NCBI GenBank assembly: GCA_038890875.1
Contig: JAWAFA010000001.1
Span: 419,910-483,909, forward strand
From: Candidatus Pacearchaeota archaeon
GTDB taxonomy: Archaea; Nanobdellota; Nanobdellia; Pacearchaeales; JAPDKA01
Direction: 5' to 3'
Length of the DNA: 64,000 nt
Shown here: one piece after another, positions 1,206-61,420 of the stretch
Layout: every line of letters starts with the position of its first letter
Numbering within the stretch: the first letter of the stretch is position 1
Translations under genes and position numbers: made by a program
Notes under the pieces: model-generated
Database searches by the model: none
Told to the model about the DNA's origin: nothing
The model's input: the letters and a program-made list of their open reading frames with translations, nothing else

Positions 1206-2345
1206 ATGGTCAACAAATTTTTAACCACATTAATAAAAATTATTCTAATAATCTTTGCAATAATCGGGGTTATTTTCGTCGGAATAACTATATATAAAAT
1301 CGCTTCGGATAAATATCCTGAGTTTGATTTTACTTTTTATATCGAAGAAACAGGTGAGCCACTTGACGGCAATGTTTATTTAGATGAAATATTCTTAGGA
1401 ACAACAAATAATGGAGTATTACATCTTGATAATATAAGTATCTTGCATTCAGGAGAATTAAAATTCAATGGGACATATAAAGGCATTCCTTTTGAATTTT
1501 ATTATGAGTTTTATAAAGATTTTATAGAGTATGGAACATATGGTTTTGTGGTAAGTTTAAACGAGTTAAAAGAACTTTCATTTGATGCATCAAAACTTGA
1601 TTTAAGAAAAATTGAAAGAGAAATATTTAATTTAGTTAATCTAGAGAGAAAAAAATATCCTGCTGCAGGAATGAGAGAATTAAGATGGAACGATAAAATA
1701 GCAGAAATCTCAAGACGCCATAGTCAAGATATGTTAAAGAAAGAATATTTTGCTCATAAAACATTAGAAAATGTAGAAACTTTAGAAACTACAGATTTTA
1801 AAGAAAGATTAAAAAAAGAAAAAATTTTTTATCTAGTCTCTGGCGAGAATCTTGCCTTAATTTCTGTCAACTCTTCAACAAATATAGCTAAAGAGGCTAT
1901 CGAAGGCTGGTTAAAAAGCCCTAGTCATAGGTCTACATTACTAGATTTAGATAATCTTTATAGCGATGCTGGTGTTGGTATTGCTTGTAGTAAGAATATT
2001 TGTTATATAACACTAGATCTTATATCTCTAATGATAGTTATTAATGAAGAAATGAAAAGAGGATATTGTTGGTTTGTCCCTTTATATGAACAATCTTTAC
2101 CCTTCGACTTTGATGTAAAAGCTAAAATCAAATTAAACTCCACTGAAAAAATTGACTTTTATATAGTAAAAAACGATTCTGCAGTAAGAGATTGCATCTA
2201 TCGACGCAAAATAAACGCTATTAAGGAATACAAAGATGTAAATAAATTAGAAGATGAAATAACACTATCAAAAGAAAATGGGGTCTTAATAAGTACTCCT
2301 TATTCAAACACAAATTTAACTATTTTTGTAGATTACATTAATTAA
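1206..2345 (+). CDS. Membrane-anchored or secreted CAP/SCP/PR-1 superfamily protein.
   Basis: N-terminal TM helix. CAP-domain motifs ELRWNDKIAEISRRHSQDM and GWLKSPSHRSTLLD...AGVGIA. Confidence 0.55.
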   Translation: MVNKFLTTLIKIILIIFAIIGVIFVGITIYKIASDKYPEFDFTFYIEETGEPLDGNVYLDEIFLGTTNNGVLHLDNISILHSGELKFNGTYKGIPFEFYYEFYKDFIEYGTYGFVVSLNELKELSFDASKLDLRKIEREIFNLVNLERKKYPAAGMRELRWNDKIAEISRRHSQDMLKKEYFAHKTLENVETLETTDFKERLKKEKIFYLVSGENLALISVNSSTNIAKEAIEGWLKSPSHRSTLLDLDNLYSDAGVGIACSKNICYITLDLISLMIVINEEMKRGYCWFVPLYEQSLPFDFDVKAKIKLNSTEKIDFYIVKNDSAVRDCIYRRKINAIKEYKDVNKLEDEITLSKENGVLISTPYSNTNLTIFVDYIN

Positions 2346-6859: not shown

Positions 6860-9367
6860 CTAGGAGCTATTGGAGTTATTGAGGGTTGTTGGCTCTGTTT
6901 TTATAACATCGACATCTATAACTTCGTCATCCGATTTTAACTTAATAATTCTCACTCCTTGAGCAATCCGTGACATGCTCCTTATATCTTTAGCATTGAA
7001 TCTAATTATAATCCCCTGTTTTGTTATTAAAATTATACTCTCATTTCCTAGAATTGTTTTAATACAAACAACTTTTCCTGTTTTTTCACTTAATGAAATA
7101 TTCTTCACTCCTATTGCAGCCCTCTTTGTTAATCTATATTCTTCAATAGGTGTTTTTTTGCCATAACCTTTACTCGTAACTGTTAAAAGCTGTGAACCAG
7201 GTTCAACAATTGTCATGTCTGCAACTTGATCATTCTTTAGCTTAACAGCTGTCACTCCATAAGCAGCTCTTCCCATCTCTCTAACTTCACTACTATTAAA
7301 TCTTACAGCCATCCCTTGTGCGGTAGCAATTATAATTTCACTATCTTTTTCTAAAACAAATGCTTCAACAATTTCATCATCGAAAGGGAGTTTTATTGCG
7401 CGAATGCCACTCTTTTTTATATTTCTGAACTCTTCTAAACTTGTTTTCTTTATTATCCCTTTTCTTGTGACAATTAATAAAAATTGTCTTCCCCCTTTTG
7501 CTTCACCCTTTTCAGCCTTAGCCTTCATTACAATCACTGCTTTTAACCTTTCTTCAGGCTTTATTGCTAACAAATTACTTATATGCTTTCCTTTGCCATA
7601 TCTTGAAGATTTTTGAATTTCATAAGCACGAAGCAAAAATGCATTGCCTCGATTTGTTATAAAGAGAATGTTATCATGTGTTGAACATGCAATAATCTTA
7701 TTAATATAATCATTTTCAGTAAGCATAGTCCCAATTATTCCTTTACCACCTCTCTTTTGCTCGCGAAACTCTTCAATGCTGATAGCATTTATATACCCTC
7801 TATAACTCAATGTTAAAACTATATCCTCTTTTTTTATCAATTCAATCTCACGAATTTCTTTTTTTTCAGCCATGATCTTTGTTTTTCTTTCATCTCCATA
7901 CTTATTTTTTATTTCACGAAGTTCTTCTTCAATTACTTTCAAAATATTTTGTTCAGATTTCAAAATCTCACTAAGTTCAGAAATCTTTCTCTCAAGTTGT
8001 TGTTTTTCTTCCTGTATTCTTTCTTGTTCAAGTTTTGTTAAACGTGAAAGTTTTAAATCAAGAATTGCTTGCGCTTGTTTTTTAGTTAAACCAAAATTGC
8101 TGATTAGCAACTTTTCTGCAACTGTAACTGAATCAGCCTTTTTAATTGTTTCAATAACCTTATCTATCACGCCCAAAGCAATAATAAATCCATCAAGAAT
8201 ATGCTTCCTTTCAGTTGCAACCTCTAGCTCATATCTTGTTCTTCTTTTTACAACCTCTTTTCTATGCTTAACATAATACTCTATAGCATCTTTCAAATTT
8301 AGTAATTTTGGTATTCCAGAAACGAGAGCAACGAAAATTGCATTAAAACTAGTTTCAAGCGAAGTATAGTTATAAAGTCGATTTATTATCAATTTTTCAT
8401 TGGCCTCTTTTTTTAGTTGTAACACTATCCTAATCCCTGCCTTTGTCGATTCATCACGCAAATCGCTCACATCAGGAAGTTTTTTTGTTTCGATAAGCTT
8501 AGCTATCTCTTGAATTAAAATTGATTTATTAACTTGATATGGTAGTTCCTTAATTATAACATACTTTTTACCAGCTTTTTCTTCACTGCTTACCACACCA
8601 CGCATAATTATCTTACCAACTCCTTTTTCATACATTTCTTTCATTCCTTGAGTAAAAATAATGCCTCCCGTCGGAAAATCAGGACCTTTAATGTAATCTA
8701 AAAGTTCATTAATACTAATTTGTGAATTTTTTATGTAAGCAATAATAGCATCAACAACTTCAGTTAAATTGTGTGGTGGTATTGATGTAGCCATACCTAC
8801 AGCGATTCCTTGTGAACCATTTATCAATAAATTTGGCAATTTTGCTGGTAGCACAACTGGTTCTTTCATGCTGTTATCAAAATTGGGCATGAATGGAACA
8901 GTTTCTTTATCCAAATCTTTCAAGAGCTCAACAGCAATTTTACTCAGCTTTGCTTCAGTATAACGCATTGCTGCAGGCGCATCTCCATCAATGCTCCCAA
9001 AATTTCCTTGACCAATAATCAAAGGATAACGTAGAGAAAAATCTTGAGCCATCCTTACTAAAGCATCATAAACAGCAATATCTCCGTGTGGATGTAATTT
9101 TCCGAGACATTCACCAACAATCCTTGCTGTTTTCTTTGTTGGTTTTTCTGGTAAAAGTCCCATTTCATACATTGAATATAATATCCTTCGCTGAACAGGT
9201 TTCAAGCCATCTTCAACACTTGGTAAAGCTCGCGCAACAATTACTGACATTGCATAATCAATATAGGCTTTGCTAACCTCTTCACTTATTTCAGCTACAT
9301 GACCATTTTTATTATTATCACTATTCATATTGTTTTCATTTTTTTCGTCTTTCTTATCTTTCTCCAT
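6860..9367 (-). CDS. gyrA: DNA gyrase subunit A.
   Basis: [26 protein letters not shown] and the active-site Tyr region. 835 aa. C-terminal beta-pinwheel repeats. Confidence 0.95.
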
Positions 9368-9389
9368 TTTCTCAATCTATTTTATTTAA

Positions 9390-9755
9390 TCAACAAGTAA
9401 CATGAAACAAGCCAGCCTTTTTTTCTTTGATTTGATTAAATATTCTAATTGCTTCAGGTGTTTTAGCTATTTTATACTTTATTTTTAATCTCTTTAATAG
9501 TTCAATCGCTCCTTCTTCGAGTTGAGCACATCCCTCTTGCCCTATCCCAAAAACTATTATTTCTGGCCTACCTTTACTTAATAAATTTTCAATTTCTTCT
9601 TTACAAAAATAATGGCCAGTTCCATATTTAATTTTACTTAATTCTCTACTTCTCTCACTAATCTCGCCATTAGCAAAAATAAAGATATCATGTTCATAAG
9701 TTTTCTTATTAACAGTTATGCTTCCAAACTCGGTTTTATTAATATAAGCCTCCAT
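9390..9755 (-). CDS. Mth938-like domain protein (DUF498 family).
   Basis: 121 aa. FGSITVNKKTYEHDIFI...IIVFGIG pattern resembles Mth938/AAMDC proteins. Confidence 0.4.
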   Translation of the reverse strand: MEAYINKTEFGSITVNKKTYEHDIFIFANGEISERSRELSKIKYGTGHYFCKEEIENLLSKGRPEIIVFGIGQEGCAQLEEGAIELLKRLKIKYKIAKTPEAIRIFNQIKEKKAGLFHVTC

Positions 9756-9761
9756 TTTTAT

Positions 9762-11663
9762 TTAAATATCAAGTTCAGCTTCTTTTGCATGTTCAATGAT
9801 GAATTGTTTTCTTGGTTCAACTTTTTCTCCCATCAAAATCGTGAATGTTCTATCAGCTTCGATAGCATCTTCAATAGTAATTTGCTTTAGCTTTCTTGTT
9901 TTTGGGTCAAGTGTTGTTTCCCAAAGCTGTTCTGGGTTCATTTCACCAAGCCCTTTAAATCTCGTTACTTCAGCTTTTTCATCTTTAACTAAATCCTTCA
10001 ATTCATCTTCATTATAAACATAATAATCTTTATTCCCTCTTCTTACCCTATAAAGAGGAGGAACTGCTACATAGATATGCCCATTCTCAATAAGTTGAGG
10101 CATATATCTAAAGAAAAATGTTAGAAGTAATGTTTTAATATGCTGCCCATCGACGTCAGCATCGGTCATTATAATTATTTTACCATATCTAAGCTTTGTT
10201 AAATCAAATTCATCACCAACATTTGTACCAACACTTTTTATTAAGGCAGCTATTTCTTCATTGGCAAAAATTTTATTATGCCCTGCTTTCTCAACATTTA
10301 AAATTTTTCCACGGAGTGGTAATATAGCCTGAAATTCTTTGTTTCTTGCTTGTTTTGCACTACCTCCAGCACTGTCTCCTTCAACAATAAAAAGTTCAGC
10401 AATCTCTTTTTTTGTTGATGAACAATCGGCAAGTTTTCCTGGAAGATTCCCGGCAAAAAGAGCCCCTTTTCTTCTTACGAGCTCCTTAGCTTTTTTTGCC
10501 GCTTCTCTTGCTTTAGCAGCTTCGCTAACTTTTTGTAAGATTCTTTTGGCAATACTTAGATTTTCATCAAAAAATTGTGAAAGTTTATTATTGACAACAC
10601 TTTCAACAATTCCTTTAACCTCACTATTTCCAAGTTTTGTTTTTGTCTGGCCCTCAAACTGTGGATTCGGCAGTTTTACATTTATTATTGCTGTTAATCC
10701 TTCCCTCGTATCATCACCCATAATTTTTATTTTTGATTTTTCATCTGCATAATCGCTTAAAACTTTTGTTAAAGCTGTTTTAAAACCTATGACATGTGTA
10801 CCTCCTTCGATAGTATTAATAGTGTTAACAAAGCTAAAAATATGCTCAGTGTAACCATCAAAATACTGTAAAGCAATTTCTACAAACACTCCATTTTTTT
10901 GATCACTAAAATAAATTGGTTTATGTAAAGGATTTTTCTCTTTGTTCAACCATTCAATAAAATCAATAAGCCCGCCTTTAGAAATAAATCTTTCTTTTTC
11001 TCCAGAAGCCTCATTAATTAACTGTATTTCTAAATCTTTATTTAAAAAACTTAGTTCTTGAAGTCGGATTTTTATTAACTTTTGATCGAAGTTAATCGTT
11101 TTAAAAATTTCTGGATCAGGCCAAAACCTAACTTCTGTTCCTGTTTCATCTGTTGTTCCAATTACTTTAACAGGAGTTAAAGCATTACCTCGCTCATACT
11201 CTTGACAATAAATTTTTCCATCTCTATAAACTTTTACAATCATCTTCTTACTTAGTGCATTTACTACACTTGCTCCAACTCCATGGAGGCCTCCAGAAAT
11301 TGCATATACTTTATGATCAAATTTACCTCCAGCATGTAACATTGTCATCACTGTTTCAAGTGCTGATTTACCTGTTTCTTTGTGAATTTCTACAGGAATC
11401 CCTCGCCCATTATCTTTAACACTAACTGACCCATCTTTATGTAATGTAATTTTAATTGATGTGCAATATCCCGCCATTGCCTCATCAATGCTATTATCAA
11501 CAATCTCCCACATTAAATGATGTAATCCCTCTTTACCAGTGCTTCCTATATACATTGCCGGTCTTCGACGTACTCCTTCTAATCCTTTTAATACTTGTAT
11601 AGCTTCCGCTGTATAAGCTTTTGCTTTTTCTTTTTTTTCTTGTTTTTCTTTTTCGTCGGTCAT
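9762..11663 (-). CDS. gyrB: DNA gyrase subunit B.
   Basis: GHKL ATPase motifs (LHAGGKFD), the Toprim motif EGDSAGGSAKQARNKEFQAILPLRGKILNVEKA, and PLYR. Confidence 0.95.
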   Translation of the reverse strand: MTDEKEKQEKKEKAKAYTAEAIQVLKGLEGVRRRPAMYIGSTGKEGLHHLMWEIVDNSIDEAMAGYCTSIKITLHKDGSVSVKDNGRGIPVEIHKETGKSALETVMTMLHAGGKFDHKVYAISGGLHGVGASVVNALSKKMIVKVYRDGKIYCQEYERGNALTPVKVIGTTDETGTEVRFWPDPEIFKTINFDQKLIKIRLQELSFLNKDLEIQLINEASGEKERFISKGGLIDFIEWLNKEKNPLHKPIYFSDQKNGVFVEIALQYFDGYTEHIFSFVNTINTIEGGTHVIGFKTALTKVLSDYADEKSKIKIMGDDTREGLTAIINVKLPNPQFEGQTKTKLGNSEVKGIVESVVNNKLSQFFDENLSIAKRILQKVSEAAKAREAAKKAKELVRRKGALFAGNLPGKLADCSSTKKEIAELFIVEGDSAGGSAKQARNKEFQAILPLRGKILNVEKAGHNKIFANEEIAALIKSVGTNVGDEFDLTKLRYGKIIIMTDADVDGQHIKTLLLTFFFRYMPQLIENGHIYVAVPPLYRVRRGNKDYYVYNEDELKDLVKDEKAEVTRFKGLGEMNPEQLWETTLDPKTRKLKQITIEDAIEADRTFTILMGEKVEPRKQFIIEHAKEAELDI

Positions 11664-13599: not shown

Positions 13600-14616
13600 C
13601 TAAAGTTTTGCTCTTTCAAATATCCACGGCTTATAGATAGGAAAAAGTGTTACTTTCCAAGCTTCTACTTTATACTTTTTAGCTAATTCTCTTGCTTTCT
13701 CCACGCTTGTTTCAGCTAAATTATGCCCTTTATAATGCACTTTCCACTTTTCTGCCAATTTTTTATTACATTTAACTTCACCATAAACAAGATAACCATA
13801 TTTGTTTATTTTTTGCCAAGGTCGCTTTATGTTTTTAACTCTCCGCTTCAATCTTTCTACAAGCTGTAGCATAAATTTTGTTTTTACAGAACAAAAATGT
13901 GCATTAACACTTTTTCTTGCAGCATACTGCAAAATTTTTTCTCCTAATTCAAGTGAGCCTTTTACAGCATAGCTCTCGCCAATAGGCTTAAATCCATGCT
14001 TTCTCATCTCTTGCCAATTTGTTTCTGAAAACTCAAATTCATTTAAGTTAAGAAATACTTGCTTAATTTTACTTATCTTTGCACAAAAATCGACTATCTC
14101 TTTTAATTTTTTCTCATTTCCAGGAATGCAGGGAGTTTCAATGCCAACATTAAAACCAAACTTCACGGCTTCTTTAATCTTATTTGGTAAGAATGAGTGA
14201 AATCTGAGTTCATCTAAACCAGCATTTTCAAGAAGCCGCAAAACATGTTGATTAATAGTGTAGCCATAAGTATAAAGATGAACATGAAATGGTTTAAACC
14301 TTTTTTTAAAATATCGAATGTAGGTTAAAGTTTTATTTATAATTTGTGTATTCAATAAAGGTTCACCGCCAGTTATGCTCATCCCTAATGCGTTCATTTC
14401 TCTTGCTTCTCTTAAAGCATCAACAAAGTTTTTTACTGGTCTCTCGTTAGCATAAACTACATTCTTACCTTTTCTCTCGTCTGAGATAGGGCAATACCAG
14501 CATTTTAACTTGCATCTTCCAGTAACAAAAAGCACCATTTTTGCACCTTTCCAACATAACCTACAACCTTCGGGAAGAAAGTTATAAATAGAGCTAAACT
14601 TATTTTTGAATAGCAT
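13600..14616 (-). CDS. Radical SAM enzyme, PflA-like; probable AmmeMemoRadiSam-system radical SAM.
   Basis: CxxxCxxC in VLFVTGRCKLKCWYCP followed by the GGEPL glycine-rich SAM motif. An AMMECR1 gene lies two genes upstream on the same strand. Confidence 0.7.
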   Translation of the reverse strand: MLFKNKFSSIYNFLPEGCRLCWKGAKMVLFVTGRCKLKCWYCPISDERKGKNVVYANERPVKNFVDALREAREMNALGMSITGGEPLLNTQIINKTLTYIRYFKKRFKPFHVHLYTYGYTINQHVLRLLENAGLDELRFHSFLPNKIKEAVKFGFNVGIETPCIPGNEKKLKEIVDFCAKISKIKQVFLNLNEFEFSETNWQEMRKHGFKPIGESYAVKGSLELGEKILQYAARKSVNAHFCSVKTKFMLQLVERLKRRVKNIKRPWQKINKYGYLVYGEVKCNKKLAEKWKVHYKGHNLAETSVEKARELAKKYKVEAWKVTLFPIYKPWIFERAKL

Positions 14617-14617
14617 A

Positions 14618-15457
14618 CTAAATCTTTAGAAGCCTTTTTACTCTTTCTTCAACAGGTGGGTGGGTTGAAAAAAGTTTTACAAATCCGCTTGCTGAAAATG
14701 GACTTATTATAAATAAATTCTCCGTTGATTCAAAACCTAGAGCCTTGCTTGATGGAATTTTTGCCTGTCTTTCAAGTTTTAAAAGTGCATTTGCTAAAGG
14801 TTTACCTTTTCCTATTAACTTTGCTCCACTCTCGTCAGCTAAAAATTCACGACTGCGGCTTATGGCCAGCTGTATCAATAAAGCTGCAAAAGGAGCAATA
14901 ATTGCTATTATAAGCAAGGCAATCAAATTTATTATCCCTTCTCTACCTTCACCTTCTAATCCCCCAAAAATGAGGTTCCATCTTAACATTGCTGCAAGAT
15001 ACATTATTACTCCCGCAAGCACGCTAGCTATCGTTGCTATTAAAATATCTCTATTTTTAACATGACTTAACTCATGACTTATAACCCCAAGCAATTCTTC
15101 TTTGCTTAACATCTCAATAATCTTCTTTGTTACAACAACTGCAGAATGCTCAGGATTTCTACCAGTAGCGAATGCGTTAGCAATTGGAAATTCGCTTACG
15201 CACAATTTTGGCATAGGTATTCCCGCCTTTTTAGCAAGCTTTTCTGTTTCTGCATAGAGCCAATGTCCTTTTGGCAATGGTCTTGCTCTATACAAAAACA
15301 ACACTACCTTATCAGAAAAATAATAACTAAAAAAATTCATTGCAAGAACAAAGATAAAAGCAACTAAGAGTCCAACCTTACCAAAAATACTTCCTATAGC
15401 TAAAACTATAGCAGTTAAAATAAAGAGCAATAAAAATGTTTTAATACGACTATCCAT
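14618..15457 (-). CDS. htpX: HtpX-like M48 zinc metalloprotease (membrane).
   Basis: N-terminal TM helices. HExxH in ISHELSHVKNRD. C-terminal ERVKRL-type tail typical of HtpX. Confidence 0.7.
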   Translation of the reverse strand: MDSRIKTFLLLFILTAIVLAIGSIFGKVGLLVAFIFVLAMNFFSYYFSDKVVLFLYRARPLPKGHWLYAETEKLAKKAGIPMPKLCVSEFPIANAFATGRNPEHSAVVVTKKIIEMLSKEELLGVISHELSHVKNRDILIATIASVLAGVIMYLAAMLRWNLIFGGLEGEGREGIINLIALLIIAIIAPFAALLIQLAISRSREFLADESGAKLIGKGKPLANALLKLERQAKIPSSKALGFESTENLFIISPFSASGFVKLFSTHPPVEERVKRLLKI

Positions 15458-15501
15458 AATTAAATTTTTGTTTTTTATTTTTAAAGCTTACGATTAACAA
15501 A

Positions 15502-16065
15502 TTAAAACCACTCTCCTTCAAAACGAAAGATTTTTGTATCTTTATCTTGCCAGGCATCCTTGTTCAATCCAGCCTTAAGGCAGGTTTGTTGTAGAAATGT
15601 TAAGGCATCAAAACTATGTTCAATTGCAACTTGTGGTAAAAGCAAACCACTCTGTTCTAACCTTAAATTATTTACGATTAACCCATGCTTTCCAATTTGA
15701 ATACTCTCAAATAATTCTTTAATTTTTTTTGTTTTTATTTCCTCTGGCGTAGAAAGTAAGGTTATCTCGATTTTAATTTTTTCTAATTCCTCTTTTGTTA
15801 GCGGCATAAACCTCGGATCATTGAAAGCGGCTAATTTTGCTGCTTGGATAATAGATCTACCTAAAGGTCTAACTATAGGGAAACCAATACAGCCACGGAG
15901 TTCTTCTTTAATTTTCAAAGTTACGAAGACGCCAGCAGAATATCTATCTAATTCTTTACTTAACATCTTTATTTTTTCAATTTCATTTTTAGTCGGATCA
16001 AGTTCATTTTTTATTGCAAGCAATGCTAATTCCTTAGCTTTTTCTCTTTCAATTTTAGTGAGCAT
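15502..16065 (-). CDS. AMMECR1 domain protein.
   Basis: GVFVTLK...LRGCIGFPIV...NDPRF matches the conserved AMMECR1 core, including CIG. Confidence 0.75.
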   Translation of the reverse strand: MLTKIEREKAKELALLAIKNELDPTKNEIEKIKMLSKELDRYSAGVFVTLKIKEELRGCIGFPIVRPLGRSIIQAAKLAAFNDPRFMPLTKEELEKIKIEITLLSTPEEIKTKKIKELFESIQIGKHGLIVNNLRLEQSGLLLPQVAIEHSFDALTFLQQTCLKAGLNKDAWQDKDTKIFRFEGEWF

Positions 16066-17569: not shown

Positions 17570-20500
17570 TTAATGGCGCACTTTTTTCACTATTATTGCC
17601 ACGGCTAGGATTACTATGATTAAACCAAGTAAAGCAATTATAGCAATATGCCAGTTGCTTTTTAACCAACCTATTACCCCACCAGTTACTGGGATTATGG
17701 GTAATCTGTCGACAAATAAGCCAATTATTGCTGCAGAGTCTACCAACGCTACTACTTTTCCATTCTCTTTATCCCAAACACTCTCTATTTTCCTCCATCC
17801 ACCACCTTCATAATTATAGATAAACAAGTTAGCTCCTTCAGCGAACTCCTCATTGATCTTTATTATTAACTCTACATCTTCACCGAATCTCACAGCTGGC
17901 GTAAACTTGTACGCTCGCACTAAATAAACATCTTGTGGCAATGTTGGAAGCAGCGTTAAATCAGTGATTTTTTCAATTTTTATAGTATTTGGATCGATTT
18001 TATTATTATTGTTATTTACTACCTCTATACTTGATAGTAGCCTCACTATTACTAATCTATCATCACTTTTTATTTCAATAGCCTTAACTTTTGGTTTTGG
18101 CGTTGTTGTAACTGTTAAATTTGGAATAATTTTGCAATCTTGCGGGCAATAAACACTTTCATTGCCTTCACAAATGTTATTGCCACATATTGGCGCTACG
18201 AGAGCTTCTCTTCCTCCTCCACCTCTTTCCTCTACTATCTTTTGCACAACTCTAAAACTAATTGTGCTCCATGCTGAAGTTCCGTGAACATCAGTAACCT
18301 TTACTTTGGCAATATACCTTCCTGGATTGTTATACGTATGAGTTGCTGTTGAAACATTTATTGCACTATAATCAAATGTCCCATCATTTGTCCAGTCCCA
18401 TTCATATGTTATATTATCATTTGTATTAAATTGTCCTCCTATTAATGCATTGAATGAAATCGATTCATCTTCATAATAAGGAGATGGGCTTGTGATAACA
18501 ATTCTTACAGATGGTAATGCAGAACTATTACTTAAGTTTAGTGGGGTGTTATTTGTTGCATTATAAGTGAAATTTGTTGTTATTATAGTACCATTATAAA
18601 GAACATTATCAGTAACATTTGCATCTATTAATGTCGCATTTCCGAGTGTTGAATTTGTTATAATTGTATTGGTTGCCGTTATATTCTCTAAATCAGAATT
18701 AATAACAGTACTATTATTTAAACTTGAATTATTTATTGTTGAATTTGTGACGTTGGAATCATTGAGCATAGAGTTTGTAATTGTTGAATTGTTTGTTGTT
18801 GAATTTGTTAAAGTTGAGTTTTCAATCTCAGAGTTTTCTACAGTTGAATTTATGAGCATTGAATTTGCAACTATTGAATCGCTAATATTACTATAATCCA
18901 AATTTGAGCTTTCAATTGTTGAGTTACTAATATTTGAATAGGTGATATTCGATTCGTTTATTATAGCCTTATCAACATTGGAGTATGTTATATTTGAATA
19001 ACTAACGTTGGAGTAAGTAACATTTGACTGATATGTGTGTGAGTTCGTTAAGTTTGAACCAGTTAAGTTGTTAGTTGGTTGTGGGGGGTCATAGATGCCA
19101 TCAGCAAGATAGCAGTTTGAAGCTATTATACCTTTAACTGTTGCATTGATTACCGTACAATTATTTAAAATTGAATTATTAATTATTGATGCTGTCGCAT
19201 TTACAGCCGTTAGCCAGGAATTTTCTACAGTTGAATTATCTATATTTGAATCTAAGATTAAAATATCCTCATTAAAGTTACCTCCAGCTGATGCTTTAAT
19301 GGTTGAGAAATTCTTTATTATTGAATCATTTATATTATTAAATATTCCTGTTGACTGACTCACATAGAATGTGCCGTTCACTGTCGAATTAAATATCCAG
19401 CCAGTGTCAAGAGTTACTACACTTGTTGTTGTTGATGTAATATTACTAATGCTTGTATTTGAATTGCTTGTTGCAATTACATTTACAATATAAACCCCTG
19501 GATTGGAATCACTAACAGTGAGACTAACTATATAACTTCCCCCTTGATTTAACATAGGAGTTGTTGTTTCATTCAAAATTGCTTGATCAGCATTATTAAT
19601 ATTTTGTATTGTTAAATTAAAGTTGTCTTGAGTATCGCCGATGTTTGTTATATTTATTGTATAAATGGCTGGCTCAAGTAAGCCGACAGTTTGTGATGAT
19701 GGAGTTGCTGTTATGCTTACACCATAGTCTGGAACTGGATTAACTGTTACAATAATAGTGTCATTTGCACTGTATTCGCCATCCGATGCTATAAGTGTAA
19801 CCTCAGCAATTCCATTCCAATTTGGATTTGCTGTTATATTAACTCTTGTGCCAACAAATGTGACGATAACATTACTATTATTTGAAGTAAATGAATAAAC
19901 TAATGTTGCATTATCAACATCCGCAAAGTAATTTGTCATGTCAAGGCTATCATTGTAACTATCTTCGTCGAAAGTTACATCTGGAATTAAGGTGATTAAG
20001 TAAGGAGCATCATTTACAGGGACAACATTTATTGTAACCGTGGCTATATTACTATTAGCTTCTCCATCATTAGCAACATATGTAAAGCTATCTATACCAT
20101 TAAAGTTTGCATTTGGTATATATGTGAAGGAACCGTCAGAGTTGAGAGTTAAGACACCATTGGAGACGTTTGTTACTAAGATTGCTGAAAGTATATCAAT
20201 ATCAATATCAGAATCATTAACTAATAACCCTTGAGCTGTGGGAACAGTTAAGATGTTATCCTCATTTGTGTTATAAACATCATTTTGTATAACTGGAGGC
20301 GTATTTTTTATATCTTTTACTACTGTTATATTACCAGAAAACTCTATTCCATCAAACGCGCCAGCAATTACCAACACATCATCATTTTTATTACAGCCAG
20401 CTGAGGTTAAGCAGTCGAATGTATTATTCGTAGACCAGGTTTGTAATATAACTCCTGTTGCATTATTTCTAAATTCATAATAATAAGTGATAATATCACC

Positions 20501-23341
20501 ATCAACATCGATTGAGCCTGTTGCATTAGCAATTAAGGTTGAACTCTTATAAGCTGGTGTTGGTTCAACTATCAAGCTTGGAGGAGTTGTTGGCGCGTCA
20601 TTTATAGGGTTAACTATAACAGTAACCGTTGCTATGTTTGAAATATTTGCACCATCATTAGCTATATACCTAAAGCTGTCTATTCCATACCAATCAGGTT
20701 CAGGTATATAAATGAAAGATCCATTTGCATTTAATACCAAATTACCATGAGAAACACTATTTACAAGGACGGCTGTTAGTGTATCACCATCTACATCACT
20801 ATCATTTGCTAAAACTCCAGGAGCAGAAATTGTAAGTATATCATTTTCATTTACACTATAAGTATCATCATTAGCAAGAGGAGCATCATTTACTGGACTC
20901 ACATTTATTGTTACAGTTGCAACAGAACTATTATCCATGCCATCACTTACTATATAGCTAAAGCTATCAATGCCGTTGAAGTTTGGATCTGGGGTGTATA
21001 TGAAAGAGCCGTCTGAGTTGAAAATTAAGTTACCATTGCTAACACTACTCACAAGAATTGCTGTTAATGTATCGCCATCAGTATCATTATCATTTGCAAG
21101 CACACCCGGAGCTGGAATGCTTAATGATTCGTCCTCCAAAATTTCATAATAATCATCATTTGCAATAGGCGCATTATTAATTACAGTTGTCGTTATATCT
21201 TGAGTTTCATTATATAATCCTGCATTTATTGTTGAATTGGCATAGACTCTAACTACATAACTTCCTGGAATGCTTGAACTCACGTCGAGCTGTACGAGCT
21301 TACTTTCGCCAGCTCCAAGAATTATAGAACTTTCATTTAGCCAGACATTTGCACCATTATAATTTATAACACCAAGCACAAAATTATTCCAAACATTCCC
21401 AGTGTTTGTTATATTAATAATGTAAGTTGCATTGGCATTTTTTGAAACTGTTCTTGCGTAACTATCACTCTCCAAGATAACACCAAGTTGCAAATCATTA
21501 CTAAATCCTCTCGTGCATTGCTGGAATTGCCAATCACTTAAAGTATTAGTATCTTGGCCATTTGGCACTCGTGCCCAGCAAAGATCATTGCCAAGAGTGT
21601 CGGCAAGATTATAAGATACATCATCAACAATCTGATTGAAGTTATCATACAAAGTTATATTTTCACCACCATTGTTCAATAAGTTTGATGCAGATCTGAT
21701 TAAGTAACTTCCAGCATTGATAATCTGATTTAATGGAAGCACATTTCCTGCAGCGTCACGAATATACCAGCCAGTGACATTAACATCATTTGCTGTCGGG
21801 TTATAAAGCTCTATCCAATCTCCGCTAGGAGTTCCGTTATTGCTTTCAAATTCATTTATGATAATAGCTGGTGGTGGTAAGAGTACAGTAAAGGCAACAG
21901 ATGCGCTTGCTAAATTTCCACTAGTGTCATTTGCCCATGCCTCAATTACATGCATGCCTTGAGCAAAAGTTTGTAAAATTGAATTTGTATATGTTATATT
22001 CACCCCCCCATCAATACTATACCAAACCTGATCAATAGCTACGTTATCGCTAGCACTAATATTTATCAAAATATCGCTTACAGTGTATGTTATGTTTTCA
22101 GGACTAACGATTATTATACTAGGAGCTTGTGTGTCTTGCACAGAAATATTAAAGCTAACACTTGCCGAGCCAACATTGTTGCTTACATCTTGAGCATAGA
22201 TGAATAGTGTATATGCACTATTTGCCAAGGTAAGAGTTGTGTTCTGGCAGCCTGGCAAGTTTTGAGGGGCCCCACCATTTAAAACATACCAACAAGCAGC
22301 TATACCATCATCATCAGAGACAATATAGTTTAATGGAATTGGCAATGATGCATAAGTTTGACCATCTTCAGGGCTAATTATAATGACACTTGGAGCATTG
22401 ATATCCCCAACTATGATTTGTTTTGTTGTACTTCTTTCATCACCATCAGCATCTCTTGCTGTCAACACAACATCGTAAGTGCCAGGCATGTTATAAGCAT
22501 GGCTTACACTTTGGCCATTTGCAATACCACCATCACCAAAATCCCAGCTAAAAGTAAGTGGTGCATCAAATGCTGTTCCACTCGCAATGAAACTTACGAC
22601 TTGGCCTATTGACGGAGAGCTCGGAGAAAAGCTGAAATCAATATTTTCAGGGACAGTATCTATAATGGTAACTCTCCAACCAGCAGAGGCTGTATTACCT
22701 CTACCATCACTTACAATAACTGCTATGTCAAAAACTTGAGCATCATTTACATTTGGTAGCTGCAATAGAAAGCTGTTTCCGCTTGCACTCTGTTGCTGAT
22801 TGTTGACATACCAAGTATAACTCAAAGTATCGCCATTTGGATCACTGGCAATTACAACAAAACTTTGTTGCAGTACGGCTTCACTTACACTAAAGGTATC
22901 TTGTGATGGGCTTTTGCTTGTTATTTGCGGTGGCTGATTAGATCCTTCAAAATAAATCCTTAATGTTTCACTTGTTGCGGTTTTGCCGCTTTTATCTTTT
23001 GTTCTTGCGTAAAAACTATGCCAGCCTGCTGTGTTATGCGTTACAATAGTTTGTAATGCACATGTACTAAAACCAGCACAATCTTTTTCAGAATAGAGTG
23101 CACCATCTTCATAAAGCCATATTTTTATAAGTCCAGCATTGTCGTCAATATCAATCCCATTGGCAAGTAGCGTAGATTGTGAAAATATTGGATTATGTGA
23201 AATTTCGCTTAGGGTAATCTTCGGAGCATAGTCATAAGCTTTTGCTAATTTGAGCATAAATAAGCTAAACATAAATATACTTATTACTAAAAAAGCCAAT
23301 ATCTTTCTATTCATCTTATAATTAATTTTAATGTTTACCAT
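17570..23341 (-). CDS. Giant (1923 aa) cell-surface protein. Domain order: signal peptide/TM, Ig-like repeats, lamin-tail domain, three cadherin-like repeats, NST-x-x pentapeptide repeat tract, PKD domain, Cys-rich stalk, C-terminal TM anchor.
   Basis: N-terminal hydrophobic MNRKILAFLVISIFMFSLFML. LTD signature PPPAIIINEFE...DWIELYNPT...VNVTGWYIRD. Three ~100-aa repeats, each ending VNDAP (DGDTLTAxLVxSVSxGNL...NGIDSFxY). A tract of NSTVENSEIENSTLTNSTTNNSTITNS... PKD-like WDWTNDGTFDY...HTYNNPGRY. C-terminal IAIIALLGLIIVILAVAIIVKKVRH. Very many N-x-S/T sequons. Confidence 0.85.
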   Translation of the reverse strand: MVNIKINYKMNRKILAFLVISIFMFSLFMLKLAKAYDYAPKITLSEISHNPIFSQSTLLANGIDIDDNAGLIKIWLYEDGALYSEKDCAGFSTCALQTIVTHNTAGWHSFYARTKDKSGKTATSETLRIYFEGSNQPPQITSKSPSQDTFSVSEAVLQQSFVVIASDPNGDTLSYTWYVNNQQQSASGNSFLLQLPNVNDAQVFDIAVIVSDGRGNTASAGWRVTIIDTVPENIDFSFSPSSPSIGQVVSFIASGTAFDAPLTFSWDFGDGGIANGQSVSHAYNMPGTYDVVLTARDADGDERSTTKQIIVGDINAPSVIIISPEDGQTYASLPIPLNYIVSDDDGIAACWYVLNGGAPQNLPGCQNTTLTLANSAYTLFIYAQDVSNNVGSASVSFNISVQDTQAPSIIIVSPENITYTVSDILINISASDNVAIDQVWYSIDGGVNITYTNSILQTFAQGMHVIEAWANDTSGNLASASVAFTVLLPPPAIIINEFESNNGTPSGDWIELYNPTANDVNVTGWYIRDAAGNVLPLNQIINAGSYLIRSASNLLNNGGENITLYDNFNQIVDDVSYNLADTLGNDLCWARVPNGQDTNTLSDWQFQQCTRGFSNDLQLGVILESDSYARTVSKNANATYIINITNTGNVWNNFVLGVINYNGANVWLNESSIILGAGESKLVQLDVSSSIPGSYVVRVYANSTINAGLYNETQDITTTVINNAPIANDDYYEILEDESLSIPAPGVLANDNDTDGDTLTAILVSSVSNGNLIFNSDGSFIYTPDPNFNGIDSFSYIVSDGMDNSSVATVTINVSPVNDAPLANDDTYSVNENDILTISAPGVLANDSDVDGDTLTAVLVNSVSHGNLVLNANGSFIYIPEPDWYGIDSFRYIANDGANISNIATVTVIVNPINDAPTTPPSLIVEPTPAYKSSTLIANATGSIDVDGDIITYYYEFRNNATGVILQTWSTNNTFDCLTSAGCNKNDDVLVIAGAFDGIEFSGNITVVKDIKNTPPVIQNDVYNTNEDNILTVPTAQGLLVNDSDIDIDILSAILVTNVSNGVLTLNSDGSFTYIPNANFNGIDSFTYVANDGEANSNIATVTINVVPVNDAPYLITLIPDVTFDEDSYNDSLDMTNYFADVDNATLVYSFTSNNSNVIVTFVGTRVNITANPNWNGIAEVTLIASDGEYSANDTIIVTVNPVPDYGVSITATPSSQTVGLLEPAIYTINITNIGDTQDNFNLTIQNINNADQAILNETTTPMLNQGGSYIVSLTVSDSNPGVYIVNVIATSNSNTSISNITSTTTSVVTLDTGWIFNSTVNGTFYVSQSTGIFNNINDSIIKNFSTIKASAGGNFNEDILILDSNIDNSTVENSWLTAVNATASIINNSILNNCTVINATVKGIIASNCYLADGIYDPPQPTNNLTGSNLTNSHTYQSNVTYSNVSYSNITYSNVDKAIINESNITYSNISNSTIESSNLDYSNISDSIVANSMLINSTVENSEIENSTLTNSTTNNSTITNSMLNDSNVTNSTINNSSLNNSTVINSDLENITATNTIITNSTLGNATLIDANVTDNVLYNGTIITTNFTYNATNNTPLNLSNSSALPSVRIVITSPSPYYEDESISFNALIGGQFNTNDNITYEWDWTNDGTFDYSAINVSTATHTYNNPGRYIAKVKVTDVHGTSAWSTISFRVVQKIVEERGGGGREALVAPICGNNICEGNESVYCPQDCKIIPNLTVTTTPKPKVKAIEIKSDDRLVIVRLLSSIEVVNNNNNKIDPNTIKIEKITDLTLLPTLPQDVYLVRAYKFTPAVRFGEDVELIIKINEEFAEGANLFIYNYEGGGWRKIESVWDKENGKVVALVDSAAIIGLFVDRLPIIPVTGGVIGWLKSNWHIAIIALLGLIIVILAVAIIVKKVRH
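18650..19075 (-). repeat. Intragenic tandem 15-nt/pentapeptide coding repeats (NST-x-x units) inside the giant surface-protein gene.
   Basis: Repeated gttgaatttgt / attgaattat-like units on the plus strand. They encode N-S-T/N-x-T pentapeptides, likely a beta-helix or glycosylated stalk. Confidence 0.6.
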
Positions 23342-25197
23342 TTTGCCTTAAAACCTAGATAAATTTCCCCAGATTTAATTTTGTTGCCAACAGTATTCAT
23401 TTCACCGCATCCAAAAATTCCCCAACTTTTTCTTTTTCCTTCACTACAAACACTGTAACTATTACGATTTTGATTTGTATCTAGAGAATATTTACTTTCA
23501 ACTCCCCACTTTTCATTTCCATAACCAAAAGTGAAACCATAATTAGGTCGATTCTTGTCAAAGTTAACATCAACACCACCATAAAAGCTTGTTGCATTTA
23601 ATAACTTTTCTATATCATTAATCTTATTCAAACCTTCAGGATTTGGTAGATAATTTAAATAAATTTTGTGTTGCCTATTGAAATAATTATTATTACCATA
23701 CCAAAGCGAGATTTTGTTATTTGCATCATCTTTGAAATAATTAATGATTAACGAGTTAGGACCAATATTATAAGCAAAATTTAAAATACCTTCGACATGG
23801 TCAGTGTTATCCACATTAGGTCCAATATTAACAAGAGGGACAAATTTTAATTCTAACTCTTTATGCTTATACTCTAAACTCGCTCCTATAGGAAAAACTC
23901 TTTTAATCTCTCTCATTTTGTCACTATATGATATTGTGTCATAATTTTGTATTTCGAAAGTATCACAAGAAACCTCTTCACCATTTATATAAACACATGT
24001 TGTGCCAGATGTTTTATTATTAACAATCTCTACTAAATCTAACTTATTCTTCACTCTACTTTCTTCGATCCCTCCGATTATCCCTCCATAAAGCCTTCCA
24101 ATTTTTTGCTTTGCTTTAATTCTTGCTTTTGTTAAAAGTTCATCTGTTTTGCTTTTTCCATTAACATTAATAAATGTTTCAATATCGCCTTGTGTTACCG
24201 TTCTAATTTCAAAAGGATTGTTCGTTATGTCTTCTTCGTAAAAAGGAGTTATTTCTTGATAAGTCTCATTTATATCATCTCTACTCATCTTAGTAGTAAT
24301 ACTAACATTCCCTTCAATATTCAAGAAGGCATTCTTCCAACCAATAGAGCCATGATATATCATTGGCATTTCTAATAAAGTTCCTTTTTCTTTTTTTTCA
24401 AAACTAATGCCCAGATCTCCATAGATATCACTTTCTCTACCTTTTCCGATCCCTTTCCTTCCCTCTCCAAACAACGTTACTCTTTGTTCTTTTCTTCCTC
24501 CCGTACCAAAAAAGAATACCTCAATATTATCTCTATTATTTTCACCAACATTTACTTTTGCATCATAACTAACAATTCCTTGACTATTATAATCTAAATC
24601 TCCTAAAAAAGAGACTGAACTAGGTTTTATTATTTTTATCTCATTTTGTCGAGGTGGTATTTGAGGTTTGATTTGCAATAGTTCTTGAGGTTTTGGCTTT
24701 TCTTTCTTTTCTTTTTCTTTGATGATAGTTTCAACTTGCTCAGAAATTATCTCTTCTTCTTTAGGTTTTTTCTTAACTTCTTGTGCCATCATCTCTTTTT
24801 TTTCTCCTTTGAATAAAACCCCATAAGATTTAGGATCGATTAATTTTTTAATCTCGTCCAAATTATTTGGTTGTAATGAGTAAACATAACCTCCTGCTTT
24901 AACAAAAATCTCTTGAGAATTATTTTGAATAAAAACTAATGTTACGGGATCAGACAAGTTTAAGCAATTACTAAGCACTGTTTGAATCTCAGGATCAACT
25001 ATTGTATACTCTGTTCCAAGTGAATATTCAATAGCTTTTACAGATGTTTTGTAGTCTTTACTTTCTTTTTTACTCCAAAAATCTTCAGCTCTTGGGCATC
25101 CTGACTGGTTTTCTAACCCTTGTGTTAAACCAAGACTACCAAGAGCAATTCCCAAAGCAAAAATTATGCTCTCCAGAGTTCTTTTCAATTTTGTCAT
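23335..25197 (-). CDS. Secreted 620-aa protein with a beta-strand-rich, OMP-like C-terminal domain. Co-transcribed with the giant surface protein (7-nt overlap).
   Basis: N-terminal signal peptide (IIFALGIALGSLGLTQG). Central K/E-rich linker. C-terminal approx. 300 aa with alternating hydrophobic dyads (FTFGYGNEKWGVESKYSL, GEIYLGFKAKW) ending in W. Confidence 0.55.
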   Translation of the reverse strand: MTKLKRTLESIIFALGIALGSLGLTQGLENQSGCPRAEDFWSKKESKDYKTSVKAIEYSLGTEYTIVDPEIQTVLSNCLNLSDPVTLVFIQNNSQEIFVKAGGYVYSLQPNNLDEIKKLIDPKSYGVLFKGEKKEMMAQEVKKKPKEEEIISEQVETIIKEKEKKEKPKPQELLQIKPQIPPRQNEIKIIKPSSVSFLGDLDYNSQGIVSYDAKVNVGENNRDNIEVFFFGTGGRKEQRVTLFGEGRKGIGKGRESDIYGDLGISFEKKEKGTLLEMPMIYHGSIGWKNAFLNIEGNVSITTKMSRDDINETYQEITPFYEEDITNNPFEIRTVTQGDIETFINVNGKSKTDELLTKARIKAKQKIGRLYGGIIGGIEESRVKNKLDLVEIVNNKTSGTTCVYINGEEVSCDTFEIQNYDTISYSDKMREIKRVFPIGASLEYKHKELELKFVPLVNIGPNVDNTDHVEGILNFAYNIGPNSLIINYFKDDANNKISLWYGNNNYFNRQHKIYLNYLPNPEGLNKINDIEKLLNATSFYGGVDVNFDKNRPNYGFTFGYGNEKWGVESKYSLDTNQNRNSYSVCSEGKRKSWGIFGCGEMNTVGNKIKSGEIYLGFKAKW

Positions 25198-25275: not shown

Positions 25276-25530
25276 TCATTCGCTAGATTTTGCAAGAGCA
25301 CGCCGTATGCTTATAATTATAATAACTAAAAGGATTATTAAGAATAAAATCAAAAATGAAAAGAACCAAATAGTAGAATTGCTAATCTTTCCATCATTGA
25401 CTACCCCTCCACTTATGGCATTATTGACCTCATTGACCTTTAAAGCATCGACAAATAAAAAAATAAGCACTGCAATAAAGATTATTATTATAAGAATAAA
25501 CACTGCTCCTGGATTTCCTTCTTCTTCCAT
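25276..25530 (-). CDS. Small two-TM membrane protein.
   Basis: Start trimmed to MEEEGNPGAVFILIIIIFIAV. The longer ORF would overlap the divergent downstream gene. Confidence 0.3.
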   Translation of the reverse strand: MEEEGNPGAVFILIIIIFIAVLIFLFVDALKVNEVNNAISGGVVNDGKISNSTIWFFSFLILFLIILLVIIIISIRRALAKSSE

Positions 25531-59098: not shown

Positions 59099-59554
59099 TT
59101 ACTTCTTGCTTTGCAAAAACAAAATTCTTATTTTACCAGAATAGTTTCCATAACTCGCATTTGCTGGAACAATTGCAATTAGAGTTATAGTTTTGTTTTC
59201 CTTTGGCAATATCACTCTAGAGCTATCTTTAGCATAGACAAAGTTTGATATGTTCCCTTCTACTTCAATATTAATCTTAAAACTTTTGTTTAAACTATTA
59301 TAAATAAAAATGTCCTTTGTAGAACTTCCATTTGGTGGCACTATCCCAAAATGCACATACTCTTGAGATAAGTCAAAACCAACTTTATCGCCAACAATAA
59401 GATAAGCATCATATTCAAATATTTTGTAAACCTCTAACTTCTTTAATAAACCAATCAAACCAATAACTATTGCAATCAACAATAATAAAATTAAAATGAT
59501 TCGATATTTATCTTTTCTGTTACTTATAATAATTTTGCTTTTAGTTTGCTTCAT
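59099..59554 (-). CDS. N-terminally anchored beta-rich surface protein (last gene of the surface-protein locus).
   Basis: Basic N-terminus + TM (YRIILILLLLIAIVIGLIGLL), then a beta-sandwich-like glycosylatable domain. Confidence 0.4.
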   Translation of the reverse strand: MKQTKSKIIISNRKDKYRIILILLLLIAIVIGLIGLLKKLEVYKIFEYDAYLIVGDKVGFDLSQEYVHFGIVPPNGSSTKDIFIYNSLNKSFKINIEVEGNISNFVYAKDSSRVILPKENKTITLIAIVPANASYGNYSGKIRILFLQSKK

Positions 59555-59555
59555 T

Positions 59556-61392: not shown

Positions 61393-61420
61393 TTTTATTT
61401 TTTTATTTATATTTAGATTT

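Follow-up and report, generated by a model that had tools for sequence, protein, structure and literature searches.

Organisation of the locus

On the reverse strand of the window (the whole 64-kb stretch of DNA analysed), a CDS at positions 23335-25197 was found to encode a target protein of 620 amino acids, ending at a TAA stop codon (23335-23337). These coordinates match one ORF exactly, and the protein is identical to hypothetical protein QW244_02505 in NCBI, from a Candidatus Pacearchaeota metagenome-assembled genome. With this identity, and with flanking genes of an archaeal housekeeping nature, the host named in a preliminary description of this DNA (a secreted protein in an archaeon) was confirmed. 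Intact orthologues were identified in a sister strain (95% identity) and in a second Pacearchaeota species (38-39% identity); the target is a genuine, conserved protein-coding gene.

The gene immediately upstream of the target, in each of the two lineages, is a small ORF of 84 amino acids (25276-25530, reverse strand) with two hydrophobic helices (2-TM) and a conserved ISIRRA motif, sharing 45% identity with positions 7548-7823 of the related locus L003. Downstream is the gene of a giant adhesin of 1923 amino acids (17570-23341, reverse strand), with PKD, Big_9/cadherin-like and lamin-tail domains, a pentapeptide-like Asn/Ser/Thr-rich region, a C-terminal TM anchor and 81 N-glycosylation sequons. 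The first ATG of this gene overlaps the target stop codon by 7 nt; were translation to begin instead at 23314 (MNRKILAF...), the two genes would be 20 nt apart. An adhesin orthologue of 2154 amino acids follows the target orthologue at L002 and L003, and the order of small 2-TM ORF, target and giant adhesin (1,900-2,150 aa) is shared by the window, L001, L002 and L003, with the same eIF-2B and AMMECR1/HtpX neighbours flanking the module at all four loci. These genes constitute a conserved, operon-like three-gene surface module, which is a new finding. Nothing suggestive of a second membrane was seen in the 64-kb window, and no outer membrane or Omp85/BamA component was seen in the window or in the related loci of approximately 20 kb.

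Architecture of the target protein

The N-terminal segment (residues 1-28; 25114-25197, reverse strand) consists of a basic start (MTKLKR), a hydrophobic core of 14-18 residues and the small residues T-Q-G. The sole 19-residue Kyte-Doolittle window of the target exceeding 1.4 covers residues 6-29, and the orthologue has an equivalent segment. Read heuristically, residues 1-28 are likely to be a Sec-type signal peptide, as expected of outer-membrane proteins (OMPs) and here putatively cleaved, or else an uncleaved signal anchor. The segment is followed by a small alpha/beta globular domain of approximately 100 amino acids (N-domain, residues 29-134; 24796-25113, reverse strand), of which C34 and C78 are kept in both lineages. 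A match of this domain to MBG (a beta-grasp adhesin domain) at an E-value of 0.03 failed the cut-off, was not reproduced in the orthologue and was dropped.

Residues 135-200 (24598-24795, reverse strand) make up a low-complexity spacer rich in Lys (21%), Glu (19%) and Pro (10%). The spacer of the orthologue is longer and Gly/Glu/Lys-repetitive, with spacer length differing both between and within lineages (65-110 aa). The longest Pro-free stretch in the target spacer is approximately 22 residues, and such proline interruptions argue against a coiled coil.

The remainder of the protein is a beta domain (residues 201-620; 23338-24597, reverse strand) with OMP-like amphipathic strands and a content of 10.5% Gly, 10.7% Asn and 11.7% aromatic residues. 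It carries a conserved cysteine pair (C583 and C596) and conserved polar blocks (GIEES, TDHxEG, KDD and SKTDE). Charged residues account for 26% of the target and 22% of the orthologue, compared to 15-21% in eight E. coli barrels. N-glycosylation sequons occur in the target at chance level (1.1 per 100 aa, versus 4.2 in the adhesin), fewer than would be expected of an archaeal surface domain that is fully exposed.

Strand periodicity and the C-terminal strand

Across residues 201-620, the mean 180-degree hydrophobic moment was greater than that of composition-preserving shuffles (z of 2.6 on the Kyte-Doolittle scale and 2.0-2.2 on the Wimley-White scale), with this period-2 amphipathicity being absent in the N-domain and in the neighbouring beta-rich adhesin (z of -0.5 to -0.9). 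Alternate-apolar runs of five, the length of a transmembrane (TM) strand, numbered 11 in the target against 5.5 expected (z 2.8), and runs of six numbered five against 2.1 expected (z 2.2). For periodicity, apolar runs, Gly and aromatic residues, the target lay within the values of E. coli OmpA, OmpC, BamA and FadL, while no such run enrichment was found in the controls (Ig-like fimbrial proteins, chaperones and the adhesin). A lack of periodicity on quantitative analysis had been set beforehand as a possible refutation of the porin-like reading; periodicity was instead present at OMP-like levels.

The three peptides that had been cited for this reading are all present, namely FTFGYGNEKWGVESKYSL (residues 555-572), ISLWYGNNNYF (496-506) and GEIYLGFKAKW (610-620). 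Amphipathic strands had been proposed for the last 300 or so residues; the pattern itself was found, but not its extent, as all 420 residues of the domain carry it, residues 201-420 more strongly than the last 200 (z 1.8 and 0.95). In the orthologue, too, the statistics are weaker than in the target (z 1.5 and 1.2). Runs of TM length with an apolar face numbered 11 in the target and nine in the orthologue, eight of which were common to both. Conserved TM-length strands with a fully apolar face thus number only eight in 420 amino acids, with none in residues 305-366, 378-434 and 444-537 and with gaps between them of up to 94 residues.

The target terminates in an amphipathic strand (GEIYLGFKAKW, residues 610-620; 23338-23370, reverse strand) with W at position 0, A, F, L and I at positions -2, -4, -6 and -8, and G at -5. 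The terminus of the orthologue (GVEIKF) has F at position 0, I, V, T and I at the alternate positions and again G at -5. That the protein ends in W in the manner of bacterial OMPs held, with W at residue 620 and an amphipathic strand ending in W or F in both known orthologues. A C-terminal rule was defined as an aromatic last residue with at least three of the four positions -2, -4, -6 and -8 hydrophobic. It was obeyed by the target and its 39%-identical orthologue and by seven of eight E. coli OMPs, compared to three of 89 non-OMPs (one of 44 E. coli proteins and two of the 45 other ORFs of the window, both of the latter being plain TM helices). In its residues, the target terminus shares the grammar of the C-terminal signal of bacterial OMPs (beta-signal).

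Homology searches, distribution and structure prediction

No OMP, POTRA, SLH, usher or secretin match was obtained in Pfam at E ≤ 10 for the full protein, its sub-domains or the orthologue; the remote homology to OMP, secretin and usher families that was to be checked for was consequently not found, and no other Pfam family was matched above threshold. Searches of NCBIfam, PHROGs and PDB sequences and profiles with whole proteins and sub-domains likewise gave no match to the target. Alignment of the family profile (hhalign) with eight E. coli barrels and twelve controls gave no signal, with a probability below 1% for the barrels. When 1.84 billion representatives were scanned exhaustively with HMMER, only Pacearchaeota proteins from two lineages were recovered, and no further relatives were found among 5.8 billion clustered proteins. 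The same two lineages alone were returned by word-indexed searches (one of which used a linker-free alignment against low-complexity candidates) and by scans of GTDB genomes and JGI metagenomes. A sole metagenome match (L004) lay in a phage structural-gene cluster and was rejected as a short peptide common by chance. The target family is thus new and of very narrow distribution, so far comprising two Pacearchaeota lineages.

AlphaFold2 gave a pLDDT of 35.8 for the full-length protein (three-sequence alignment) and 29.6 for the C-domain alone (two-sequence alignment). These low values, at which neither model can be used for the beta domain, are due to there being only two diverged lineages to align. 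Confidence was limited to the N-domain (pLDDT 58-83 over residues 31-130), for which the topology was beta-beta-alpha-beta-beta-beta-alpha. Helices at residues 467-478 and 526-533 appeared in both runs, each with low confidence. A Foldseek search of the PDB with the full-length low-confidence model returned noise (best E-value 0.06, TM-scores 0.05-0.1). Internal repeats, in the form of a hairpin or propeller-blade duplication, were also considered and rejected, as the best self-alignment score of 37 lay inside the shuffle range of 29-48.

Sequence evolution

Between lineages, the target shares 38% identity compared to 67-84% for neighbouring genes, and so evolves much faster than these. Comparison of the window with strain L001 (99.07% identical) showed 21 nonsynonymous and two synonymous codon changes in the target, against 31 nonsynonymous and 33 synonymous changes in the flanks (Fisher p = 3.6e-4). 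This strain-level excess of amino-acid changes was not significantly above neutrality (p = 0.07-0.13) and did not recur in the second lineage, where five members of 99% identity were compared. Diversifying selection was rejected as a general property, the pattern being confined to the comparison of the window with L001, for which it remains an observation. Hypervariation of the DGR type was also rejected, as the 24 strain differences, spread over CDS nt 409-1175, involve all base types and are neither adenine-specific nor localised. The fast evolution and the strain-level changes argue for surface exposure of the protein.

Comparison with known systems

Transmembrane beta-barrels count as a hallmark of the outer membranes of bacteria, mitochondria and plastids. 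We know of no integral beta-barrel membrane protein family established in archaea, and for this reason the target is a concrete candidate for an archaeal barrel that is cheap to test. Our literature search found no paper tying Pacearchaeota to beta-barrel or outer-membrane proteins. With BAM-dependent barrels of bacteria (porins, OmpA-like and Omp85-type), the target shares a signal peptide, a composition rich in Gly, Asn and aromatic residues, period-2 strands of TM length and a terminal strand whose last residue is W or F and whose positions -2, -4, -6 and -8 are hydrophobic. It differs from them in lacking sequence or profile similarity, in its higher charge (26%), in its long regions without TM-like strands and in its cysteine pair. 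Its host is also dissimilar, being an archaeon for which neither outer membrane nor BamA is known, and barrel closure is only putative here.

Pairs of genes for a barrel and a giant adhesin occur in bacteria, namely TpsB/TpsA of two-partner secretion and PorP/SprF with SprB of the T9SS. The target, too, has a very large repetitive adhesin as its direct neighbour, with probable co-translation of the two. POTRA, ShlB, Bac_surface_Ag and Haemagg_act matches, however, are absent from both proteins, as are PorP_SprF from the target and a TPS domain or T9SS C-terminal domain from the adhesin. The adhesin has its own signal peptide and C-terminal TM anchor, and an outer-membrane transporter would therefore not be needed.

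The module order of the target (N-anchor, extended spacer and large C-terminal beta domain) is that of OmpM/SlpA of diderm Firmicutes and Deinococcus (PMC10628300, PMC9388160) and of the Thermotoga toga (PMC10160955). No SLH domain is present at the N-terminus, in contrast to OmpM/SlpA (no Pfam match), and in place of a trimeric coiled-coil stalk the spacer is Pro-interrupted and of low complexity. Archaea are also without the peptidoglycan or secondary cell-wall polymer used in binding of the OmpM/SlpA type. Giant surface proteins and attachment structures described in DPANN archaea (PMC11329633, PMC11420986, PMC11291902) share with this locus a small genome, a huge PKD/cadherin-like protein, presumed to mediate cell-cell contact, and fast-evolving lineage-specific accessory genes, but none of these systems includes a protein with the OMP-like grammar of the target. 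A barrel-shaped envelope complex to which no protein is assigned has been imaged in ARM-1, a DPANN archaeon (PMC11329633).

Interpretation

The target is perhaps best explained as a beta-rich protein that is exported by Sec, tethered at the cell surface and partnered there with the adhesin, a reading to which we give an even chance of being correct. Its export and tethering, its pairing with the adhesin and the soluble or peripheral state of its beta domain are our inferences. Sec would export the protein, which would stay at the cell surface with the adhesin, its N-terminal part lying close to the membrane and possibly touching the 2-TM protein. The spacer may act as a tether of up to approximately 20 nm, carrying a beta domain that is exposed and probably oligomerises, in the form of a sheet or barrel-like module. 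The role of this module would be to hold up or position the adhesin, or to attach to a partner cell, and not to act as a BAM-inserted integral pore. A canonical BAM-type barrel is less likely because of the 26% charged residues, the sparse conserved TM-length strands, the conserved cysteine pair and the absence of a known outer membrane in this group. A non-integral beta domain is further favoured by the conserved polar blocks, the helices placed by both low-confidence AlphaFold2 runs, the lack of OMP, POTRA, SLH, usher and secretin matches and the lack of any sign of a second membrane in the window. Standing against the surface-partner reading are statistics that agree with true OMP barrels and not with the Ig-like soluble controls, a terminal aromatic strand that is rare in non-OMPs (3/89), a sequon density at chance level, and a strain-level excess of amino-acid changes that is not significantly above neutrality and did not recur in the second lineage.

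It is unlikely that residues 201-620 form an integral transmembrane beta-barrel, which would lie in an unseen outer envelope layer or in the membrane of a partner cell and serve as the pore or distal anchor of the adhesion module, tethered by the N-domain and spacer as in OmpM/SlpA. To our knowledge, archaea are without Omp85/BamA and no outer membrane is known for Pacearchaeota, and neither was found in the window. The charge, the eight conserved TM-length strands with gaps of up to 94 residues and the orthologue z of only 1.5 and 1.2 also weigh against such a barrel, as do a conserved cysteine pair within what would be the last hairpin, the absence of SLH, coiled coil and POTRA, and the lack of OMP-family homology (Pfam, and hhalign with E. 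coli barrels). It would, on the other hand, account for amphipathicity, TM-length runs and Gly and aromatic content inside the E. coli OMP range, for a C-terminal rule obeyed in both lineages and for the low sequon density. It is also consistent with the layout of domain, spacer and beta domain like that of OmpM/SlpA (PMC10628300, PMC9388160), with the unassigned barrel-shaped complex of another DPANN archaeon (PMC11329633) and with a possible PopA-like relative in Altiarchaeales (PMC12228718). If the barrel were instead a bacterial OMP gene gained by horizontal transfer, as the preliminary description had suggested, only the general OMP-like sequence grammar would speak for it. This origin is close to refuted, because only two Pacearchaeota lineages carry the gene among 1.8 billion representatives; neither these nor the profile searches yielded a bacterial homologue, Pfam and NCBIfam gave no OMP match, the GC content (0.31-0.35) is that of the local background and synteny with archaeal genes is kept in the second species.

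The export signal, variable-length spacer and large beta domain, together with a gene position beside the main surface adhesin, would also suit an S-layer-like or sheath-like envelope protein, self-assembled into a lattice in which the N-terminal part and spacer form a stalk and the beta domain a canopy pierced by the adhesin. S-layers are present on cultivated DPANN archaea (PMC11329633), and the Thermotoga toga is a lattice of beta-barrel proteins (PMC10160955). Such a role is nevertheless rather improbable, as no S-layer family was matched in Pfam or NCBIfam, sequons are sparse by the standard of archaeal S-layer proteins and a family restricted to two lineages is not what one would expect of an essential envelope protein, which related Pacearchaeota should share. 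The target might also act on the adhesin as a secreted enzyme or processing factor, such as a protease or a protein that binds or modifies glycans, with the polar blocks as a putative active site; this is suggested by the coupling to the adhesin gene and by GIEES, TDHxEG, KDD and FGCGE being invariant at 39% overall identity. We consider this very unlikely, with no catalytic family match in Pfam, NCBIfam, PDB sequences or PHROGs and polar motifs that fit none of the catalytic signatures tested.

Were the target to be a true barrel, it would be an OMP-type barrel that is independent of, or has diverged beyond recognition from, the Omp85-dependent families of bacteria, in a lineage without BamA. 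It would then be a candidate building block for barrel-shaped envelope complexes in DPANN cells, and would bear on how beta-barrels may be inserted without BAM and on the connection between DPANN cells and their hosts. Should the beta domain be soluble, it would caution that amphipathic periodicity and a C-terminal aromatic residue alone do not identify an OMP, and the locus would still define a new three-gene surface module in an uncultivated lineage.

Genomic context of the 620-aa protein

Positions 23335-25197 of the window (minus strand) were found to correspond to exactly one ORF of 620 codons with a TAA stop, and a deposited entry identical to its product is annotated as a hypothetical protein on a 486-kb contig of a Candidatus Pacearchaeota MAG. 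The three peptides quoted in the preliminary description, which had likened the C-terminal part of the protein to a porin or outer-membrane protein (OMP), correspond to residues 555-572, 496-506 and 610-620; Trp is the C-terminal residue, as claimed. The archaeal context of the gene is sound, since the window contains a set of archaeal housekeeping genes (aIF2-gamma, aIF5B, an eIF-2B-family protein, archaeal signal peptidase I, Kae1, MetRS, 2-oxoacid:ferredoxin oxidoreductase, gyrase and HtpX) and is uniformly AT-rich (GC 0.27-0.37 throughout), the composition showing no shift at the gene.

Elsewhere in the window, an exported protein (1206-2345, plus strand) was identified to contain a CAP (cysteine-rich secretory protein) domain (E = 2e-10), which is uncommon among archaea. 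Genes for the A and B subunits of DNA gyrase, a bacterial-type topoisomerase in an archaeal genome, lie side by side at 6860-11663 (minus strand). A series of exported or unannotated proteins is encoded at 59099-63829 (minus strand), which may represent a second surface or pilus locus. Among these are a Gly/Thr-rich protein of 200 aa with a pilin-like N-terminus (MNRKGEISNNILAILLAVAIVIGLV), a protein of 393 aa that is strongly amphipathic with period 2 (z 2.6, Kyte-Doolittle) and has a weak CARDB match, and two proteins of 411 aa and 305 aa with no family match.

A conserved three-gene module

The gene was found to be preceded by a small ORF and followed by the gene of a giant adhesin, an order shared by the window, the sister-strain locus L001 and the loci L002 and L003 of a second Pacearchaeota lineage. 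On one side, the genes beyond this trio are not the same in both lineages, and the conserved unit is therefore the three-gene module. The small ORF (25276-25530, minus strand; 84 aa, 45% identical between lineages) encodes two hydrophobic helices and an ISIRRA motif, and lies directly 5' of the 620-aa protein gene in every genome having the latter, with its counterparts (L003 7548-7823, L002 191-466 and L001 9668-9922) giving a length range of 84-91 aa. It had no family match except a weak one to a PHROG 'membrane protein' (E = 0.009), and is probably part of the same surface module.

The adhesin gene (17570-23341, minus strand; 1923 aa) lies directly downstream, its first ATG overlapping the stop codon of the 620-aa protein (ATGGTAA), with an alternative start 20 nt further on. 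Its product possesses a signal peptide of its own, PKD, Big_9/cadherin-like and lamin-tail domains, a long pentapeptide-like Asn/Ser/Thr-rich region (NSTxxNST...), 81 N-glycosylation sequons and a C-terminal TM anchor. The orthologue in L003 (2154 aa) is 67% identical overall, with blocks ranging from 45% to 87%. At 13600-16065 (minus strand) of the window, the gene for an AMMECR1-family protein (AmmeMemoRadiSam system protein A) is close to those for a radical SAM enzyme and HtpX, and AMMECR1 and HtpX are likewise situated downstream of the adhesin in L003.

Domain organization and predicted structure

Residues 1-28 consist of a basic N-terminus and the sole strongly hydrophobic segment of the protein, features of a predicted signal peptide or signal anchor. 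These are followed by a small alpha/beta domain (residues 29-134) with two Cys kept in both lineages, the only region with a confident AlphaFold2 model (pLDDT ~60-83). A low-complexity Lys/Glu/Pro-rich spacer (residues 135-200; K 21%, E 19%, P 10%) is variable even between 99%-identical strains; that of the orthologue has greater length and is Gly/Glu-repetitive. The remaining beta-rich domain (residues 201-620; Gly 10.5%, Asn 10.7%, aromatics 11.7%) contains a second conserved Cys pair (C583 and C596) and several invariant polar blocks. No internal repeat was found in the protein.

AlphaFold2 models of the beta-rich domain were unusable, mean pLDDT being 35.8 from an alignment of three sequences and 29.6 from one of two, and Foldseek with the first model returned only noise. 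Both runs concur on the secondary structure of residues 380-601, predicting five beta-hairpins (strands of 7-17 residues) and two short helices, an agreement that, with pLDDT this low, is only a hint.

Relatives of the protein

When 1.84 billion representatives were scanned exhaustively with HMMER, just two relatives emerged, namely a partial copy from the sister strain (P0002, 95% identical) and a 677-aa orthologue from the second lineage (P0003, 39% identical). The 90% cluster of the latter holds five members from different MAGs, and a scan of GTDB genomes recovered its lineage on L003, a Pacearchaeota contig of 87 kb. No additional relatives came from word-indexed searches, whether these used the protein itself, the family alignment or an alignment without the linker. 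Pfam, NCBIfam, PHROG and PDB sequences likewise gave no match, even at E <= 10, to the protein or any of its sub-domains, nor to the orthologue. The sole match of the metagenome scan, contig Ga0181369_1000006, has the short peptide EVYTIVDPE in common with the N-domain; it was rejected as a chance match, the contig being a phage structural-gene cluster.

On these searches, the protein is assigned to an orphan family. The preliminary description had also raised horizontal acquisition and suggested remote-homology comparison with OMP families. As relatives were found only in Pacearchaeota and no OMP family was matched, with hhalign giving no signal against E. coli barrels, horizontal transfer of a bacterial OMP was rejected.

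Sequence divergence

Between lineages the protein is 38% identical, compared to 67% for the adhesin, 71% for eIF-2B, 70% for AMMECR1 and 84% for HtpX. Comparison of window 23965-25197 with L001 10001-11233, from two strains sharing 99.07% identity across 11 kb, revealed 21 nonsynonymous and 2 synonymous differences in codons 1-411 (pN/pS 2.7), an excess not significantly beyond neutrality (p about 0.07-0.13). Eleven flanking genes combined showed 31 and 33, respectively (pN/pS 0.23; Fisher p = 3.6e-4 against the protein). Nineteen of the 21 changes lie within residues 229-392 and none in the N-domain. The variation does not resemble that of a DGR, as the changes are not adenine-specific. No such excess occurred among the five second-lineage members, where the spacer is the main difference. 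We read this pattern as suggesting that, in one population, selection on an exposed domain has been relaxed or diversifying, and not as a general property. The L001 contig stops within the gene, possibly because strain heterogeneity disrupted assembly.

OMP-like sequence statistics

Eight E. coli K-12 outer-membrane barrels (OmpF, OmpA barrel, OmpC, LamB, FadL, FhuA, BamA barrel and the ElfC usher) served as positive controls. The negatives were 44 further E. coli proteins encoded in the same regions, among which were Ig-like fimbrial subunits and chaperones, and every other window ORF that reached 150 aa (45 in all) provided a control of matching composition. In residues 201-620, the period-2 hydrophobic moment exceeded that of shuffled sequences (z = 2.2, Wimley-White; 2.7, Kyte-Doolittle), compared to z 0.7-4.3 for the barrels, less than 1 for most negatives and -0.8 for the adhesin. 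Alternate apolar runs were also enriched in this region, with 11 of five residues (5.5 expected, z 2.8) and 5 of six residues (2.1 expected, z 2.2). OmpA, BamA, OmpC and FadL behaved similarly, while no soluble control had z > 2 on both measures; the orthologue gave weaker values (z 1.5 and 1.2). The amphipathic pattern attributed to the C-terminal part is thus beyond chance by quantitative test, but its signal is weaker in the last 200 residues than in residues 201-420.

The terminal strand fits a simple C-terminal OMP rule, as do those of seven of the eight barrels, one of the 44 E. coli non-OMPs and two of the 45 window ORFs, both of the latter being simple hydrophobic helices. The orthologue (39% identical), with its terminus GVEIKF, also conforms to the rule, and both termini have Gly at -5. 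The OMP-like sequence pattern of the protein is real.

Interpretation of the beta-rich domain

These statistics and the terminal strand would be consistent with an integral OMP-like barrel, as would a sequon density at chance, 1.1 per 100 aa where the adhesin has 4.2, yet the protein is 26% charged residues, exceeding all eight barrels (15-21%). Furthermore, just eight strands of TM length have a face that is apolar throughout in both orthologues, and the gaps of 57-94 residues between them hold strands that are short or contain polar residues, while Cys pairs and polar motifs are conserved. Neither an outer membrane nor Omp85 is known in archaea, and nothing suggestive of these was seen within the window. 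On the side of a barrel, the domain-spacer-beta layout recalls that of OmpM/SlpA (PMC10628300, PMC9388160); against it, the protein is without an SLH domain or coiled coil, and also without a POTRA domain. Cultivated DPANN archaea possess a single membrane and an S-layer, but imaging of one of them has shown a barrel-shaped envelope complex of unassigned protein (PMC11329633), and Altiarchaeales have been reported to contain a possible PopA-like relative (PMC12228718). The prior for a barrel is therefore low, though above zero. An integral barrel, which would be a notable finding if true, is retained as an alternative of low probability.

The reading that we prefer, and regard as about equally likely to be right or wrong, is that the protein would be exported via Sec and would stay tethered as a beta-rich partner of the giant adhesin, in a lineage-specific three-gene surface module that may serve cell-cell or surface attachment.
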